Source: a virus
Lineage: Duplodnaviria; Caudoviricetes
Virus record (IMG/VR): IMGVR_UViG_3300028888_000047
Coordinates: 1-64,000 of that record
DNA: 64,000 bases
Direction: 5' to 3' (one strand)
The position numbers were made by a program, and so were the translations under genes. Numbering within the stretch: the first letter of the stretch is position 1; the number at the start of each line of letters is the position of its first letter. The notes below the pieces were generated by a model, which was not told where the DNA came from, searched no databases, and saw nothing but the letters and a program-made list of their open reading frames with translations. Positions 16,222 to 34,450 of the stretch are shown here, piece after piece.

Positions 16222-16572
16222 TTCATATTGCTTATTTTAAGCCTTATATGGCGCGTTTTATTATCTTTCCTTATATGTTTATCATTTAATATATAAAAAC
16301 GTCTTATAATGGCTGAAAATGACTAATTTTATTTTTAAAAATTAGTTTTCAATTTTAAGATTTATTAGCATTAATTTTTTGGCAATATGGATAATAATGA
16401 TTATCTTTGATGTGGGCTTACAGACTCAGCTGGTGAGGAGGCGTATGAATTACATCCAAATTTAATTTCAAATTTTAAGTTTTATTAAGATTAAAAATTT
16501 GGAGGTATCAGGATTAATTATTATCTTTCAGCACAATAATAAAATTAATGTTTAATTTAAATCGTATCAGTT

Positions 16573-17127: not shown

Positions 17128-17432
17128 AAGGGATGGGGCGAAAGCCCTATCTTTTTTATATATATGAGTACTTAATTAAGTACATATATAATAAGAGGCG
17201 GCTCAGTTGTAGTCGCCTTTTTTTATTGATTATCAACGGATGTGAAACCTTGGTATCCTGAGCTTTCCTACCTCAAAGATAATTATTTTAATTGATAGTG
17301 CCAAATTATTTTATTTAAAAAGTGTTAATAGAATTAATTTTTTTCTTTTTTGAAATTATACGTATAATTACACTATATTATTAAATATAATTTTGTATAT
17401 TTGCAAATAGAAACATTTAAAAGTTAATTATT

Positions 17433-17759: not shown

Positions 17760-18014
17760 AACAAAGAAGGAACGTGTCATCATTATTGGTGGTACGTTTT
17801 TTATTGTGTTAATAAAATGTTAAAGCTGCCAAAATATTTGGTTATTTCAGTTTTTATTGTTATCTTTGAAATGGGCAAACAGAAAGAGCTTATGAAGAGG
17901 CGTATGAATACAGTAAACATTCAAATGTTAATAGAATGTTAAAGTTGAAATAATATTTTGTTATTTAAGATATTATTATTATCTTTCGTCATATAAATAA
18001 ATAAGGTATATATT

Positions 18015-18808: not shown

Positions 18809-18884
18809 GTTGATATATTGGTTAGACATTATATTTATTATTGGTTTTTAAAACGTGGTGGCTTGTGATAAGTCGCCACTTTTT
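18809..18884 (+). ncRNA. Candidate antisense-to-start-codon segment plus terminator hairpin
   Basis: Reverse complement reads AAAAACCAATAATAAATATA-ATGTCTAACC; followed by GTGATA-loop hairpin and T run. Confidence 0.45.
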
Positions 18885-19102
18885 CTTTTACCATACTTAT
18901 CAACGGATATGAAACCTTGGTATTCTGAGTTTTCCCACCTCAAAGATAATCATTTTCATCCAATCTTGCAAATTTTTTTAGTTAATAACGGTTAATAAAA
19001 TAATTTTTTTTCTTTAACATTTTTTATAATTAAAAATTCGTTTTTTAAAAAATAAATGATTATCTTTCAAGCGTTAAGTTAAGCAATTAAAGAATAAGAG
19101 TT

Positions 19103-19402: not shown

Positions 19403-19794
19403 TTATAAGGTTAGTTGGATTTTGTTCTGTTTCTGTCATCTGAAACGTGTGGCTTGAGAAAGTCGCACGTTTTTTATTTTATTAACATTTAAAATTTGGT
19501 GGTTTCAATTTTTATTGTTATCTTTGAAGTGGGCAGCCAGGAAGAGCACGTGAGGAGACGTATGAATACAGTAAACATTCAAATGTTAATTAATTGTTAA
19601 AGTTAAAATAAAATTTTGATATTTCAATTTTTATTATTATCTTTCAGTAGTTAAACAATTAAAAAAGAAAGAAATTATGTTTTTATCATTTATCATTATA
19701 GTAGTTATTGCGGCTTTAATTCACGAAGGAATAAAGAGCCACGGTGATATGAAGTCGTGGGTTGAAAATCTTAAAAATACTGAGGAATAAAATT

Positions 19795-20028
19795 ATGGCA
19801 GTTAAATATATGAATACTATCAAGTTTTCAAAGGAGTTAACGCCAAAAGCTTTTCAAGCAAAGGTTAAAGAAGTTTTGGAAGAAAAAGTGTGCGAAACTC
19901 AAGAAGAAGCCGAGGAATTGGTGGAATCTATGGAGTTTGAATTGGAGTTATATTACGAGAATGGAACTGGCTTGTTGATGTCTATAAGGATTGGAAGACA
20001 AATGACGAGAATGGAACTGGCTTGTTGA
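19795..20028 (+). CDS. Hypothetical protein whose C-terminus is altered by a tandem duplication
   Basis: Start MAVKY; 50-bp duplication near the 3' end. Confidence 0.65.
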   Translation: MAVKYMNTIKFSKELTPKAFQAKVKEVLEEKVCETQEEAEELVESMEFELELYYENGTGLLMSIRIGRQMTRMELAC

Positions 20029-20054
20029 TGTCTATAAGGATTGGAAGACAAATG
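19955..20054 (+). repeat. Perfect 50-bp tandem duplication
   Basis: ACGAGAATGGAAC...GACAAATG twice. Confidence 0.95.
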
Positions 20055-20399
20055 AATCGTAAATAGGTACTTAATTAAGTATAAATATGGATGCTTTAAG
20101 GAGTATAATAGGTATTTTGGAGACCCCAATTGCAAAACGTAAGGGTGTAACAATTTCGGCTGAAGATTGTGCCATTTGGGTTGAGGAACTAAAGAAAGTG
20201 TTAAAAAAATGTTAAAGTAAAGAAAATATTTGGTAGTTCAAAAATAAATTATTATCTTTCAAGTGCTTAAATAAACAAATGATAAACAAAATATGTTTGG
20301 AGATATTCGTGACAGTAGTTAAACAAGAAGGTTGTAACCACCTTTATCTACGGCTGTGATAGGGTAATCAGTATATCAAAAGAATATAATTAATAAGTT

Positions 20400-20669
20400 A
20401 TGTTAGATAGCAAGTTAAAGTTAGACGAAAAAAGGGTTCGCCCTTTATACGAAATAGCAAAAGAGATTCGTTCTGATTGGAAGAACATCTATTTTGGCGC
20501 GAAACATTATCTTGGGGCAATGCTGACGATGAAGTCGATTGACGAGAAATATATGTGTGACGATGGTCGTACAATTGTAAACTATTTCCTCGCAAACGCA
20601 AGCAGTTGGAGGGGTGAAGTTGCTCGAAGAGTTAAGAAAGAACTCAATCAAATGTTAAAGGAAAAGTAA
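20400..20669 (+). CDS. Conserved-looking small phage hypothetical protein
   Basis: RPLYEIA..I..DW...YFLANA..WRG..A...K.EL pattern. Confidence 0.75.
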   Translation: MLDSKLKLDEKRVRPLYEIAKEIRSDWKNIYFGAKHYLGAMLTMKSIDEKYMCDDGRTIVNYFLANASSWRGEVARRVKKELNQMLKEK

Positions 20670-20807
20670 CTCTGTTGTTCTCATAATTCATAATTCGATT
20701 TAAGTTAGACTTTGGTTAAGCGTGTTGCTTGTGATAAGTAGCACGCTTTTTTGTTAAACAAAGTTAAGGAATTTGGTTATTTGGATTTTGTTTTGTATAT
20801 TTGCAAT

Positions 20808-20990
20808 ATATCATTCATACTTGTATTTTTTAGTTAGCATAACTTGGGTGGGTTGGTTCGCGATGAATAGATTCACTATTTTTTAAAAGACAATACTATT
20901 AGTTTCATAAACCATAAATTTGTTTTAAATATTTAATTTTAGGAAATTTGAATAATGAAAGTGGTGGCTTGTGATAAGTCGCCGCTTTTT
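20808..20990 (+). ncRNA. Promoter-driven non-coding unit with two antisense-start/hairpin modules
   Basis: TATATTTG at 20796; no ORF; hairpins plus T tracts ending ~20884 and ~20990. Confidence 0.55.
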
Positions 20991-21419
20991 CTTTTTGTGT
21001 GCATATAGAACAAGGATGGATGTGGAACTTTGGTATCCTAAGCTTTCCCACCTCAAAGATAACAGTATTTTTTCAAATAACCAAATTATTTTTGGCTTTT
21101 AACATTAAATTAACACAGTTGTTAAAATTGGGTTAAAACCTTATTTTTATTTGGAATTTTCAATTTTTATTATTATCTTTCAGCAGTTAAACAATTAAAA
21201 AGAGATTATGAAGAAGTTTAAGATTATTAATGGAAAGAAGCACAAGGCAATAGGTTACGCCTATGATGGAAAACCAATCGGTTGGATTGCTTGTGGTGAG
21301 AACGATTAAAAATAATTTAAAAATAAAGTAGATTATGCTTACAATTCAAATTCAGTTATTATGCATTATAGTAATGTTAAGTCTTATTCATTCCAAAATG
21401 AAATAAAGAATAGAAGATT

Positions 21420-23345: not shown

Positions 23346-23637
23346 ATAGATTGATGTTTGGTTTGTCATAAATGATGTTGTTTTTCAAAACGTGTTGTCT
23401 GCGAAGATGGCACGTTTTTTATATGTTAATTAAATGTTAAATCCACCAAAATATTTGGTGGTTTCAATTTTTATTGTTATCTTTGAAGTGGGCAGCCAGG
23501 AAGAGCACGTGAGGAGGCGTTGGTGAACTGTAAATGATTCGAATGTTAATTAAATGTTAATAATACAATATTATTTGGCTATATCATTTTTTATTATTAT
23601 CTTTAAGCATCAATTAAAAATAAAAGAGATTAGAATT

Positions 23638-23850: not shown

Positions 23851-24332
23851 GATATGGAAAAGGTTAAATGCGTTAGTTGCGGCTCCGATGTTGAGATTAA
23901 TATCTCAAAAGCCGTAGATGAACATGGTGAGGTGTTCCTTTGTCCAAATTGTGGTAAAAAGTTCAGATACACCAATAAATAAATTCTTGTGTTAAAAATG
24001 TTAATTCACTTGCATATATAAGAATTTATTCATATCTTTGCATCGTCAAAATAAAATTAATGTATAACAATTAAAAAACAAATAGTAAAATGAAGAAGTT
24101 GATTTAATAGTAGCAATTAATTAGCCAGTAGGTGCAATAAAAGTAATAAGACCTCGCACAGGCAACCCACAATGGTGTGGAAGTAATGTGTAAATAGAGT
24201 ATCTTATAATCCTACCTATCCTCAAAGTGCGGAGATAGTATCTAATTAATAGAGGGCAGCACCAAGCGAAGCCAAAAAGGAGTTGAAACCACTCTATCAA
24301 AGGTCGTGATTGCGGTAATCGACATATAAAAA

Positions 24333-24405: not shown

Positions 24406-24697
24406 CGAAGAATTTATTATAAGATTTTTGTTTTGTATTTGAAGCGTGTTGCCTGCGAAGGCAACACGTTTTTCTTTTTATACATATTCATTTCAATTGC
24501 CTCACCTTGGTGAACAACCCTTTCACCTGTTTTCCCACCTCAAAGATAATAAATTTAATCCAATCTTGCAAATTTTTATTGTTAATTGATGTTAAAGAAA
24601 AAAGTTTTTTTATTAACATTTTTTACATATATTTTTTTGGAAATTAGAAATAAAATGATTATCTTTCCAACGTTAAACATTTAAATTTATATTAATT

Positions 24698-25369: not shown

Positions 25370-25672
25370 TGGGTACTTAATTAAGTACGTAGTTGGATTT
25401 TGTAGCATAGGCATTTTAATTTTTTGATTGAAGCACGCTGCTCATGAGAGTGGCGTGTTTTTTTTATATTTATTAACATTAAAAATTTGGCTATTTCAGT
25501 TTTTATTGTTATCTTTGAAATGGGCAAACAGAAGACGCTCGTGAAGAGGCGTATGAATACAGTAAACATTCAAATGTTAATAAAATGTTAAAGTGGGAAA
25601 AATATTTGGTAATATCAAATTTAATTATTATCTTTCAAGCGTTAAGTTAAACAATTAAATAAATAAGGTATT

Positions 25673-27207: not shown

Positions 27208-27517
27208 GCAAATACTTTGCTTTCATAATTTGTTAGTTTTTGATTGTTTGACACGAAGGTGTAGCTTAATTGCTACGCCTTTTGTCGTATATATGCTTTT
27301 CGACGACAGAACCTTGGTGATACAACCCTTTTATTTGTTTCCCCACTTCAAAGATAATCATTTTTATTGAATCTTGCAAATTTTTATTGTTAATTGATGT
27401 TAATAACAGTAAGAAAAAATATTTCAAATTTTAAGTTTTTTTAATAATAAAAATTTTGAAATTTGAAATTAAAATATTATCTTTCAGGCGTTAAACAATT
27501 AAATAATATAATAATGT

Positions 27518-29959: not shown

Positions 29960-30150
29960 ATAAAATGCTGCTCAAAAAAGAGTAGCATTTTTTACATTTA
30001 TTAACACCAAAAATTTGGCGCTTTAATTTTAAATGATTATCTTTGATGTGGGAAAATAAATGAAGGCGTTGTAACACCAAGATGAAAAAATAAGAGAATA
30101 ATTTGGTTTTCTCAATATTTATTTGTATATTTGTAAGAGTTAAACAATAT

Positions 30151-30234
30151 GGCCGCATGGCGGAATTGGTAGACGCGAGGGACTTAAAATCCCTTGGGCA
30201 TTTGCCCGTCCGGGTTCGAGTCCCGGTGTGGCCA
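30151..30234 (+). tRNA. tRNA-Leu(TAA)
   Basis: Cloverleaf with long variable arm, anticodon loop CTTAAAA; own promoter at 30126. Confidence 0.95.
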
Positions 30235-30508
30235 CATTTATTTTTTCATGTTGTAGTTTTAAATGGCTTTCGCTCATCACGAGCGGGAGCCATTTTTCCT
30301 TTCATGCCACTCCCTGTGGAGGAACTCATTAGTATCCTATTGTTCCTACCTCAAAGATAACAGTATTTTTTCAAATATCCAAATATTTTCTTGTGTTTAA
30401 CACTATTTTAACACTTATGTTAATTAAATGTTAAAATTGAAATTTTATTTTGTTTTTAAAAAATAAATGCTTATCTTTCCCACGTTAAACAATTAAATTA
30501 ATATTAAT

Positions 30509-30700
30509 ATGAATAATTGGGTAAAGAAAACGAAGCCAAAGAAAAAAAGGTTGAATAAGATTCAGTTTATTAGGAAATATAAACGTTTTAACATCTTTAC
30601 AAAGGGTGGCGAAAATAGAACCGTAACCGCTCCTTATCCAATGACTTTGGATTATGCAATGTATTATTTTAACGCATTATCAATTGGTTCAGCAGAATGA
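30509..30700 (+). CDS. Basic hypothetical protein
   Basis: Promoter at 30472. Confidence 0.65.
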   Translation: MNNWVKKTKPKKKRLNKIQFIRKYKRFNIFTKGGENRTVTAPYPMTLDYAMYYFNALSIGSAE

Positions 30701-32744: not shown

Positions 32745-33221
32745 CAATTTAGCAAACGCATATAGGTAGTAGCGACTATCTATGTTTGCTATTTCAAGGA
32801 CAAAACCTTTTTTAAATGGGCGTTGCAAACGTAAGGGGAAGAGCGTTTGCAACGTTTTTTATTAACCCATTCAATTAACATTTATTAACTAAAATAATTT
32901 TGATATGTCATTTTTTATTATTATCTTTGAAGTGGGCAACCAGGAAAAGCTCGTGAGGAGGCGTTGGTGAACTGTAAATAGTTCGAATGTTAATTAAATG
33001 TTAAAGTGGTAATTTTATTTGTTTTTTAAAAAATAAATTATTATCTTTCAATCAAAGAAAATAAATAAGGAGATATTAATTATGGCATATAGAGATAAAA
33101 TAACGTTGCATATCTATTGGGATGATGGTGTCACTGTTGAATGCCGTTATTTTCCATCAAAGAAAGCTGCAAAGAAATATGCAAAAGACAATGGTTGCGT
33201 TGGTTATAAAATTGATTAAAT

Positions 33222-34308: not shown

Positions 34309-34450
34309 AGTGTTAAAGAAATGTTAAAAATTGGATTTCATTTCTTTATCCAATTTTTTTCTTGTATATTTGCAATGTTGAAAGACAAAAAGATAACGAA
34401 TTAAGTCGCCAAGCGTCTGACCGCGTAAGTCTATATGCTTTCAACATCAT

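Follow-up and report, generated by a model that had tools for sequence, protein, structure and literature searches.

What is made from a promoter that is followed by no gene? The question is raised by a locus in a huge uncultured phage whose host group is Bacteroidota. The phage record has 317,464 bp and was judged 95% complete. The window in this work is the first 64 kb of that record (64,000 nucleotides, G+C about 31%). A preliminary description of the window had claimed that a stand-alone promoter at this locus drives only two tandem modules, each with a "guide" segment, a hairpin, and a T tract. Bacteria and temperate phages are well known to make small RNAs. To our knowledge, no sRNA has been described for phages of Bacteroidota.

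The locus lies in a dense array of short cassettes on the + strand, from about 16 to 35 kb of the window. The cassettes are ordered as a pair of GTTAA boxes, a promoter of the Bacteroidota type, a small ORF or a tRNA, and a hairpin with a T tract. The promoter boxes TTTG and TAnnTTTG make up the consensus for sigma-ABfr, the Bacteroidota primary sigma factor (PMC7366714). The pattern TTTG-N20-TAnnTTTG has 26 sites in the window where 1.10 are expected, and that count was reached in none of 100 shuffles. The pattern GTTAA-N6-GTTAA has 21 sites in the window where 0.53 are expected (e.g. 20200-20215, 21121-21136, and 34312-34327). These pairs stand at a fixed distance of about 13 nt ahead of the -33 box and are oriented like the promoter they precede; a transcription factor of the phage or of the host likely binds them. 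The terminator scan found 15 terminator-like sites compared to 5.4 expected, nearly all of them on the + strand. None of the six neighbouring array proteins that were scanned has a Pfam family.

Other elements were also observed around the array. A conserved element of about 62 nt has six + strand copies (16410-16469, 17870-17929, 19527-19588, 23486-23548, 25519-25579, and 32930-32992; nhmmer E 1e-14 to 1e-18). It begins directly after a perfect consensus promoter, and a second promoter follows 119-120 nt on. It consists of a strong Shine-Dalgarno-like GAGGAGG, a mini-ORF of 4-12 codons, and a small hairpin whose arms vary among the copies with the pairing retained. This element may be a leader peptide or an RNA element in a phylum that rarely uses sites of the Shine-Dalgarno type. 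The stretch 24041-24332 is about 290 nt long, richer in G+C, and without an ORF, and it lies between a consensus-like promoter (24010-24040) and tRNA-Lys. It matches no Rfam family at gathering score and is possibly another structured RNA that is co-transcribed with tRNA-Lys. The 16-base palindrome GTACTTAATTAAGTAC has 10 copies with at most one mismatch where 0.01 are expected (17168, 20067, 25373, 28022, 31007, 37870, 38525, 38860, 39111, and 39308). The copies that were inspected are intergenic and stand shortly past a stop codon (e.g. 20067). Within the small ORF 19795-20028, a stretch of 50 nt is perfectly duplicated in tandem (19955-20055, 2.0 copies). The duplication shifts the frame because 50 is not a multiple of three; the matching ORF has 95-103 aa in close haplotypes compared to 77 aa in the window.

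The features of the candidate unit and its flanks are given below with their coordinates in the window and their strand.

20718..20754, + strand: intrinsic terminator of the upstream 89-aa gene (20400-20669), with its hairpin at 20718-20748; found by the terminator scan.
20753..20767, + strand: two GTTAA boxes just 5' of the -33 box; read from the sequence.
20772..20803, + strand: Bacteroidota sigma-A-type promoter, with the -33 box TTTG at 20772-20775 and the -7 box TATATTTG at 20796-20803.
20814..20832, + strand: proposed seed, complementary at 19 of 19 positions to the start region of an AAA+ ATPase gene.
20847..20885, + strand: hairpin 1 (20847-20877) and T6, proposed weak primary terminator.
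20886..20956, + strand: variable A+T-rich spacer, known from haplotype comparison; the second "guide" of the preliminary description.
20957..20995, + strand: hairpin 2 (20957-20989) and T-rich tail, proposed strong back-up terminator.
20991..21085, - strand: hypervariable stretch and an inverted consensus promoter (21054-21085, strict promoter match) that faces the unit; flank, outside the RNA.

The upstream 89-aa gene is set apart from the unit because it is closed by a strong terminator, the hairpin of which has -17.8 kcal/mol and z -5.4 on the + strand and -9.2 kcal/mol on the - strand. The two GTTAA boxes ahead of the unit are atypical, with a spacing of 5 bases and a position about 8 bases nearer the promoter than usual. 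The promoter itself is an exact consensus, with the same 20-base gap as the 25 other strict sites in the window, and is found where the preliminary description had placed it. Among seven sequences, both boxes are invariant and the three variable positions all fall in the spacer between them. The genome has 40 promoters that share this -7 box, and behind 33 of them there is an ORF within 150 nt. The seven exceptions include the promoter of tRNA-Leu, where an ORF call does no more than overlap with the tRNA gene, and another promoter ahead of a tRNA-like array at 34341.

The promoter belongs to the repeat families D7/D11 and its best paralogue is the tRNA-Leu promoter at 30102-30133. The flank at 21045-21215 is 73% identical to the flank behind tRNA-Leu. 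Since promoter and flank are both paralogous to the tRNA-Leu cassette, the unit stands in a cassette type that elsewhere carries an RNA gene. The unit and the tRNA-Leu cassette (30102-30515) are alike in their promoters (76%), the position of the terminator, the element past the terminator, and the next promoter (73%), and differ in the payload slot, which in the candidate unit holds no tRNA. ARAGORN and Rfam gave no tRNA match in 20761-20990. A decayed tRNA was rejected, as the alignment to tRNA-Leu is no better than noise and no tRNA model matches. Membership in the two repeated promoter-proximal families of the array was also rejected; their nhmmer profiles find every one of their own copies and not the unit.

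The stretch behind the promoter shows no coding signal. No ATG ORF of at least 30 aa was found on the + strand after the promoter and before 21208, and the ORF at 21208 has its own promoter (21150-21181). The sole + strand frame is a hydrophobic 37-aa TTG frame (20773-20886) that starts within the -33 box. Its codon 4 is changed from TGG to TGA in L109 and L110 by an A at window position 20784, which is also present in L123-L126. A 17-aa frame from 20955 runs over hairpin 2. In the haplotypes it loses its stop, and its residues are altered exactly at the covarying sites of the hairpin, so the constraint on hairpin 2 is on RNA pairing. Codes 4 and TAG=Q, read besides code 11, opened no credible ORF, and the gene callers of three independent assemblies made no + strand call in the 539-nt gap. 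The lack of an ORF behind the promoter, as claimed in the preliminary description, is thus confirmed under all three codes. That description had also named a decayed CDS in relatives as an outcome that would count against it. A decayed CDS was rejected because neither tblastx nor protein comparison gave a match, whether in 106 related loci that sum to 464 kb or in five related genomes. On the minus strand, a frame of 48 aa in the window is called as a 59-aa gene in L109. This gene call was rejected as a singleton with no homologue among 5.8 billion clusters or in the related genomes, and the frame changes by indels and many replacements between haplotypes.

The two hairpins with T tracts that had been reported behind the promoter were both recovered. 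Hairpin 1 has -10.3 kcal/mol (z -2.3; equalled by 4 of 200 shuffles) compared to -1.6 on the minus strand. Hairpin 2 has -18.4 kcal/mol (z -5.8; equalled by none of 200 shuffles) compared to -5.3 on the minus strand. Since both stems rely on G.U pairs, the folds form on the + strand alone and collapse on the other, and the hairpins are therefore signals for a + strand RNA. Each has the form of an intrinsic terminator, a stable stem-loop with a U tract directly after it on the strand that would be transcribed, with hairpin 1 being weak and missed by the terminator scan. The 5' part of the RNA, including the seed at 20814-20832, is predicted to be unpaired in both the MFE and the centroid structures of a 78-nt RNA. 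Taken as a whole, the RNA does not fold more stably than its shuffles (z -1.2 at 192 nt, z -0.5 at 78 nt).

A loop-proximal sequence of 12-13 nt is common to three terminators (18860-18877, 20726-20740, and 20966-20983). It is also found in the first hairpin of the Bacteroides sRNA GibS, probably by chance. The GibS family of Rfam (RF04182) gives 22.6 and 21.6 bits (E about 1) where the gathering score is 115, which places the unit outside the family; these sub-threshold matches arise because 13 bases of the hairpin loop are held in common. An Rfam identity was rejected, as nothing reaches gathering score and the weak matches to GibS and Ref1C are generic similarities of hairpin or loop.

The haplotypes were defined as contigs that carry variants of the 89-aa protein with at least 90% identity. 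There are five: the window, L109, L110, L123/L124, and L125/L126. Identical copies are also present in other samples. A block that consists of the upstream terminator, the promoter, the first segment, hairpin 1, and its T tract is kept in all five haplotypes. The 42-nt first segment, which includes the seed, is invariant; this invariance is not significant alone because local divergence is 2-3%, for which about two changes are expected. Two of the changes in hairpin 1 fall in the stem and keep it paired (G.U to A-U and U.G to C-G), and a third falls in the loop. The spacer has 2-6 changes in L109/L110. In L123/L124 it is wholly replaced by unrelated sequence that starts right past the first T tract, and the replacing segment has no match in the genome of the window phage. 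Hairpin 2 has one compensatory pair (U-A to C-G), two one-sided wobble changes, and no broken pair, and L125/L126 have a further change from G.U to A-U. The preliminary description had called for conserved hairpins with variable guides in relatives. Among the five haplotypes the hairpins are indeed kept and the second segment varies, but the first segment does not.

The surroundings of the unit are more changeable. The gene behind the promoter at 21150 differs in every haplotype (33, 90, 98, or 243 aa) and the promoter region is kept, so cassettes are exchanged by recombination at the promoters and boxes that they have in common. With 0-2 changes in 42 bases across haplotypes, the inverted promoter (21054-21085) is kept as well, and the 53 bases at 20991-21043 have 7-12 substitutions and 11-16 indel columns. 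The cassette style is also that of relatives at 57-77% protein identity, which have dozens of promoters of the Bacteroidota type without this payload. The search for homologues of the RNA in five related genomes returned matches to the promoter part alone, and exact-word scans of viral contigs found none.

The transcribed part of the unit was searched against the phage genome and gave one exact identity of 19 nt, between window 20814-20832 and genome 190985-191003. The RNA would be antisense to the mRNA of the gene at that site because the gene lies on the other strand. The 19 bases are fully complementary to positions -14 to +5 of that gene (genome 189865-190989, minus strand), which stands outside the window at about 170 kb from the unit. 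Its product is a 374-aa AAA+ ATPase (Pfam AAA, E 2e-10), and the gene comes second in its operon, with 24 nt between it and the DnaJ-like gene that precedes it. The 19-mer occurs only in the unit and at the AAA+ start region and has no near copy elsewhere. A match of this length was obtained in 3 of 400 dinucleotide shuffles of the whole 157-nt core, in 1 of 1000 shuffles of the first segment against the genome outside the array, and in none of 60 shuffles against 599 start regions. The duplex energy is -27.4 kcal/mol compared to -21.8 +/- 1.9 for shuffles, 1 of 100 of which reaches it; the next best start regions are not far behind at -24.0 and -23.1 kcal/mol. The statistics of the 19-nt match are to be read with a discount for multiple tests because about 18 segments were screened. 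Subject to that discount, the predicted accessible seed is complementary to its proposed target beyond chance, as would be expected of an sRNA, and the unit has the sequence anatomy of an sRNA gene, non-coding and with its own promoter and putative terminators.

The AAA+ leader was also compared among relatives. In L118, which carries a relative of the AAA+ gene with at least 90% identity, the leader agrees with the first segment in 21 of 23 positions, some of them outside the 19-mer, and in L117 in 19 of 22 (a hand count on the alignment). These matches point to an inverted copy as the link between segment and leader. The AAA+ leaders of relatives at 57-77% protein identity are unrelated, and no antisense copy of the AAA+ leader was found in two related jumbo phages. 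None of the haplotype contigs joins the cassette to the proposed AAA+ target locus.

The preliminary description had regarded both modules as guides and as products in their own right rather than 3' UTRs. The first segment, with its 19/19 antisense match, agrees with a guide. The second segment (20886-20956) does not, having no target above shuffles (886/1000 and 46/60) and being replaced in L123/L124, and the second unit looks like a spacer with a back-up terminator rather than a second guide. For the unit as a whole, the upstream terminator, the exact promoter, whose closest paralogue drives tRNA-Leu, and the intact block favour a separate transcription unit over a 3' UTR. The description had further noted more than one CAT in each segment. 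The counts (3 and 2) are right but deserve little weight, as the enrichment is mild: 5 were seen compared to 1.36 expected at the rate of the array + strand (P=0.013), and at the whole-window rate the difference is not significant.

The same screens were applied to other segments of the array, with targets sought in the phage genome. Of 11 trailers tested, nine scored within shuffles and only the first segment of the unit and, weakly, a neighbour exceeded them. All five minus-strand variable segments that were scored also fell within shuffles. Two apparent matches were rejected as copies of the repeated palindrome GTACTTAATTAAGTAC. The 3' UTR of the 89-aa gene (20670-20717) has a 15-nt motif and a second block that are both kept in L008, where the protein is 77% identical. 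In the genome of the window phage, a 158-aa gene (genome 75913, minus strand) has a start region to which this motif is antisense. This gene was rejected as the target because its homologue in L008 is not complementary although the motif is kept.

The transcription unit is probably real. Its main rival is an empty cassette, in which a payload (tRNA or small ORF) has been lost, the promoter fires into junk, and the AAA+ match is a chance event or a neutral micro-duplication. The AAA+ identity could indeed be a small inverted duplication without function. The paralogy to the tRNA-Leu cassette on both flanks, the rampant shuffling seen behind the next promoter, the absence of the unit from more distant relatives, the lack of a structure signal in the whole RNA, and the clearly unconstrained second segment all fit it. 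However, the first segment and hairpin 1 resemble neither a tRNA nor the other families of the array, five haplotypes keep the block whole as far as the first T tract with the sequence directly behind it replaced, the changes in the hairpins preserve pairing, and an antisense match of 19/19 on a start codon is rare in shuffles. We consider the empty cassette unlikely, though it deserves to be taken seriously. The same anatomy would equally suit a real sRNA with another job, acting on host mRNAs, binding or sponging a host RNA-binding protein, or acting through its hairpins, with the AAA+ match being incidental. The restriction of the screens to the phage genome leaves room for this reading, as do the 13 bases that the terminator loops hold in common with the first hairpin of GibS (weak Rfam matches), and the 15-nt motif, which is kept in the 77% relative without its predicted phage target and may therefore, like other such motifs, serve other partners. 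Yet the GibS matches stay at 22 bits against a gathering score of 115 (E about 1), a host target has no positive evidence, and the phage-gene match is the only one above shuffles, so that another job seems quite improbable.

The remaining two readings place the product elsewhere. The inverted promoter at 21054-21085 may drive a product that runs back over hairpin 2 and the spacer, either an antisense RNA or a protein of 48-59 aa; the promoter matches the consensus exactly and has its own correctly oriented upstream GTTAA boxes, the open frame exists and is even called as a gene in L109, and six such inverted modules stand behind terminators. We regard a minus-strand product as very unlikely, since its frame is without homologues and is altered by indels and many replacements between haplotypes, the hairpins fail to fold on that strand, the minus-strand variable parts have no targets, and the + strand promoter and the conserved first segment would be left unexplained. 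Least credible of all is a very small + strand protein from the 37-aa or the 17-aa frame. Both frames exist and the longer one is hydrophobic, but hydrophobic frames are the default of T-rich DNA, the longer frame begins in the -33 box and meets TGA at codon 4 in the variants, the shorter one loses its stop and alters its residues where hairpin 2 covaries, and no homologues were found for either.

The inverted promoters were also observed as a group. Six exact minus-strand consensus promoters are present (17274-17305, 18941-18972, 21054-21085, 24541-24572, 27349-27380, and 30352-30383). Each stands just behind a + strand terminator and is followed by a conserved start of the GGTGGGAAA type. 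At 21054-21085, the only one of these loci that was compared across haplotypes, the roughly 50 nt that it would transcribe are the most variable part of the block. The six may be antisense RNAs or transcriptional insulators.

The reading that we prefer is a stand-alone sRNA gene, with a 5' seed in the RNA that would cover the start region of the AAA+ ATPase gene of the phage. We give this reading an even chance; the assignment of the AAA+ start region as the target of the RNA, taken by itself, stands slightly short of even. Transcription, the RNA ends, and repression of the target are what we infer from the sequence, as follows. The host-type RNA polymerase would start a few bases past the -7 box, at about 20809. 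Most transcripts would end after about 76 nt, at the T6 of the weak hairpin 1, and the remaining transcripts would read through the dispensable spacer to the strong hairpin 2, giving about 185 nt. The first 25 nt or so of the RNA would be unpaired, and the 19-nt seed would pair with the AAA+ mRNA from -14 to +5. Translation initiation in Bacteroidota needs an open A-rich leader and not a Shine-Dalgarno site, and the seed duplex should therefore block ribosome loading, on the AAA+ gene alone.

A wider proposal is that the phage makes regulatory RNAs by inverted copying of its own gene leaders behind spare promoter-terminator cassettes. The array would then be a shuffling workshop for programmable translational repressors, in which the segments between fixed hairpins are swapped among strains and some are aimed at host mRNAs. 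We put this forward as a long shot.

Few sRNAs have been predicted in virulent or giant phages and almost none of them has a target (PMC8244752). The candidate brings a precise target site in its own phage genome, in an operon with a DnaJ-like gene, and natural haplotypes define the borders of the unit. If the preferred reading is true, the unit would be a case of post-transcriptional control within a jumbo-phage operon and a simple model of an RNA that arises from a copied leader.

Among known systems, the candidate can be compared to that of the giant lytic phage phiKZ. The dRNA-seq paper on phiKZ states that few virulent phages have predicted sRNAs, with an unclear function; Northern blots did not confirm the candidate of phiKZ, which has no target (PMC8244752). 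Both phages present an RNA candidate of about 75 nt, and they differ in that a specific target site is proposed here, from sequence alone. The high-confidence intergenic sRNAs of Bacteroides, such as GibS, have a promoter of the sigma-ABfr type (TTTG / TAnnTTTG), a Rho-independent terminator, and A+T-rich sequence, and GibS acts on start regions with a long single-stranded 5' seed (PMC7366714). The candidate shares these traits, with its predicted seed also directed at a translation-initiation region. It differs from GibS in being phage-encoded, in having a phage gene as its predicted target, in being shorter (about 76 nt), and in being a prediction from sequence.

Two classical antisense RNAs of phages, c4 of P1/P7 and sar of P22, act by masking a ribosome-binding region. 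As proposed for the candidate, each is a short phage RNA with a terminal hairpin that blocks the translation of a single phage gene by pairing with its start region. However, c4 and sar adjoin or oppose their targets in the immunity region of temperate phages, whereas the candidate lies about 170 kb from its predicted target in a jumbo phage, the host of which does not rely on Shine-Dalgarno pairing. The candidate RNA would stand outside all catalogued families and be, by kind, a base-pairing sRNA or phage antisense RNA.
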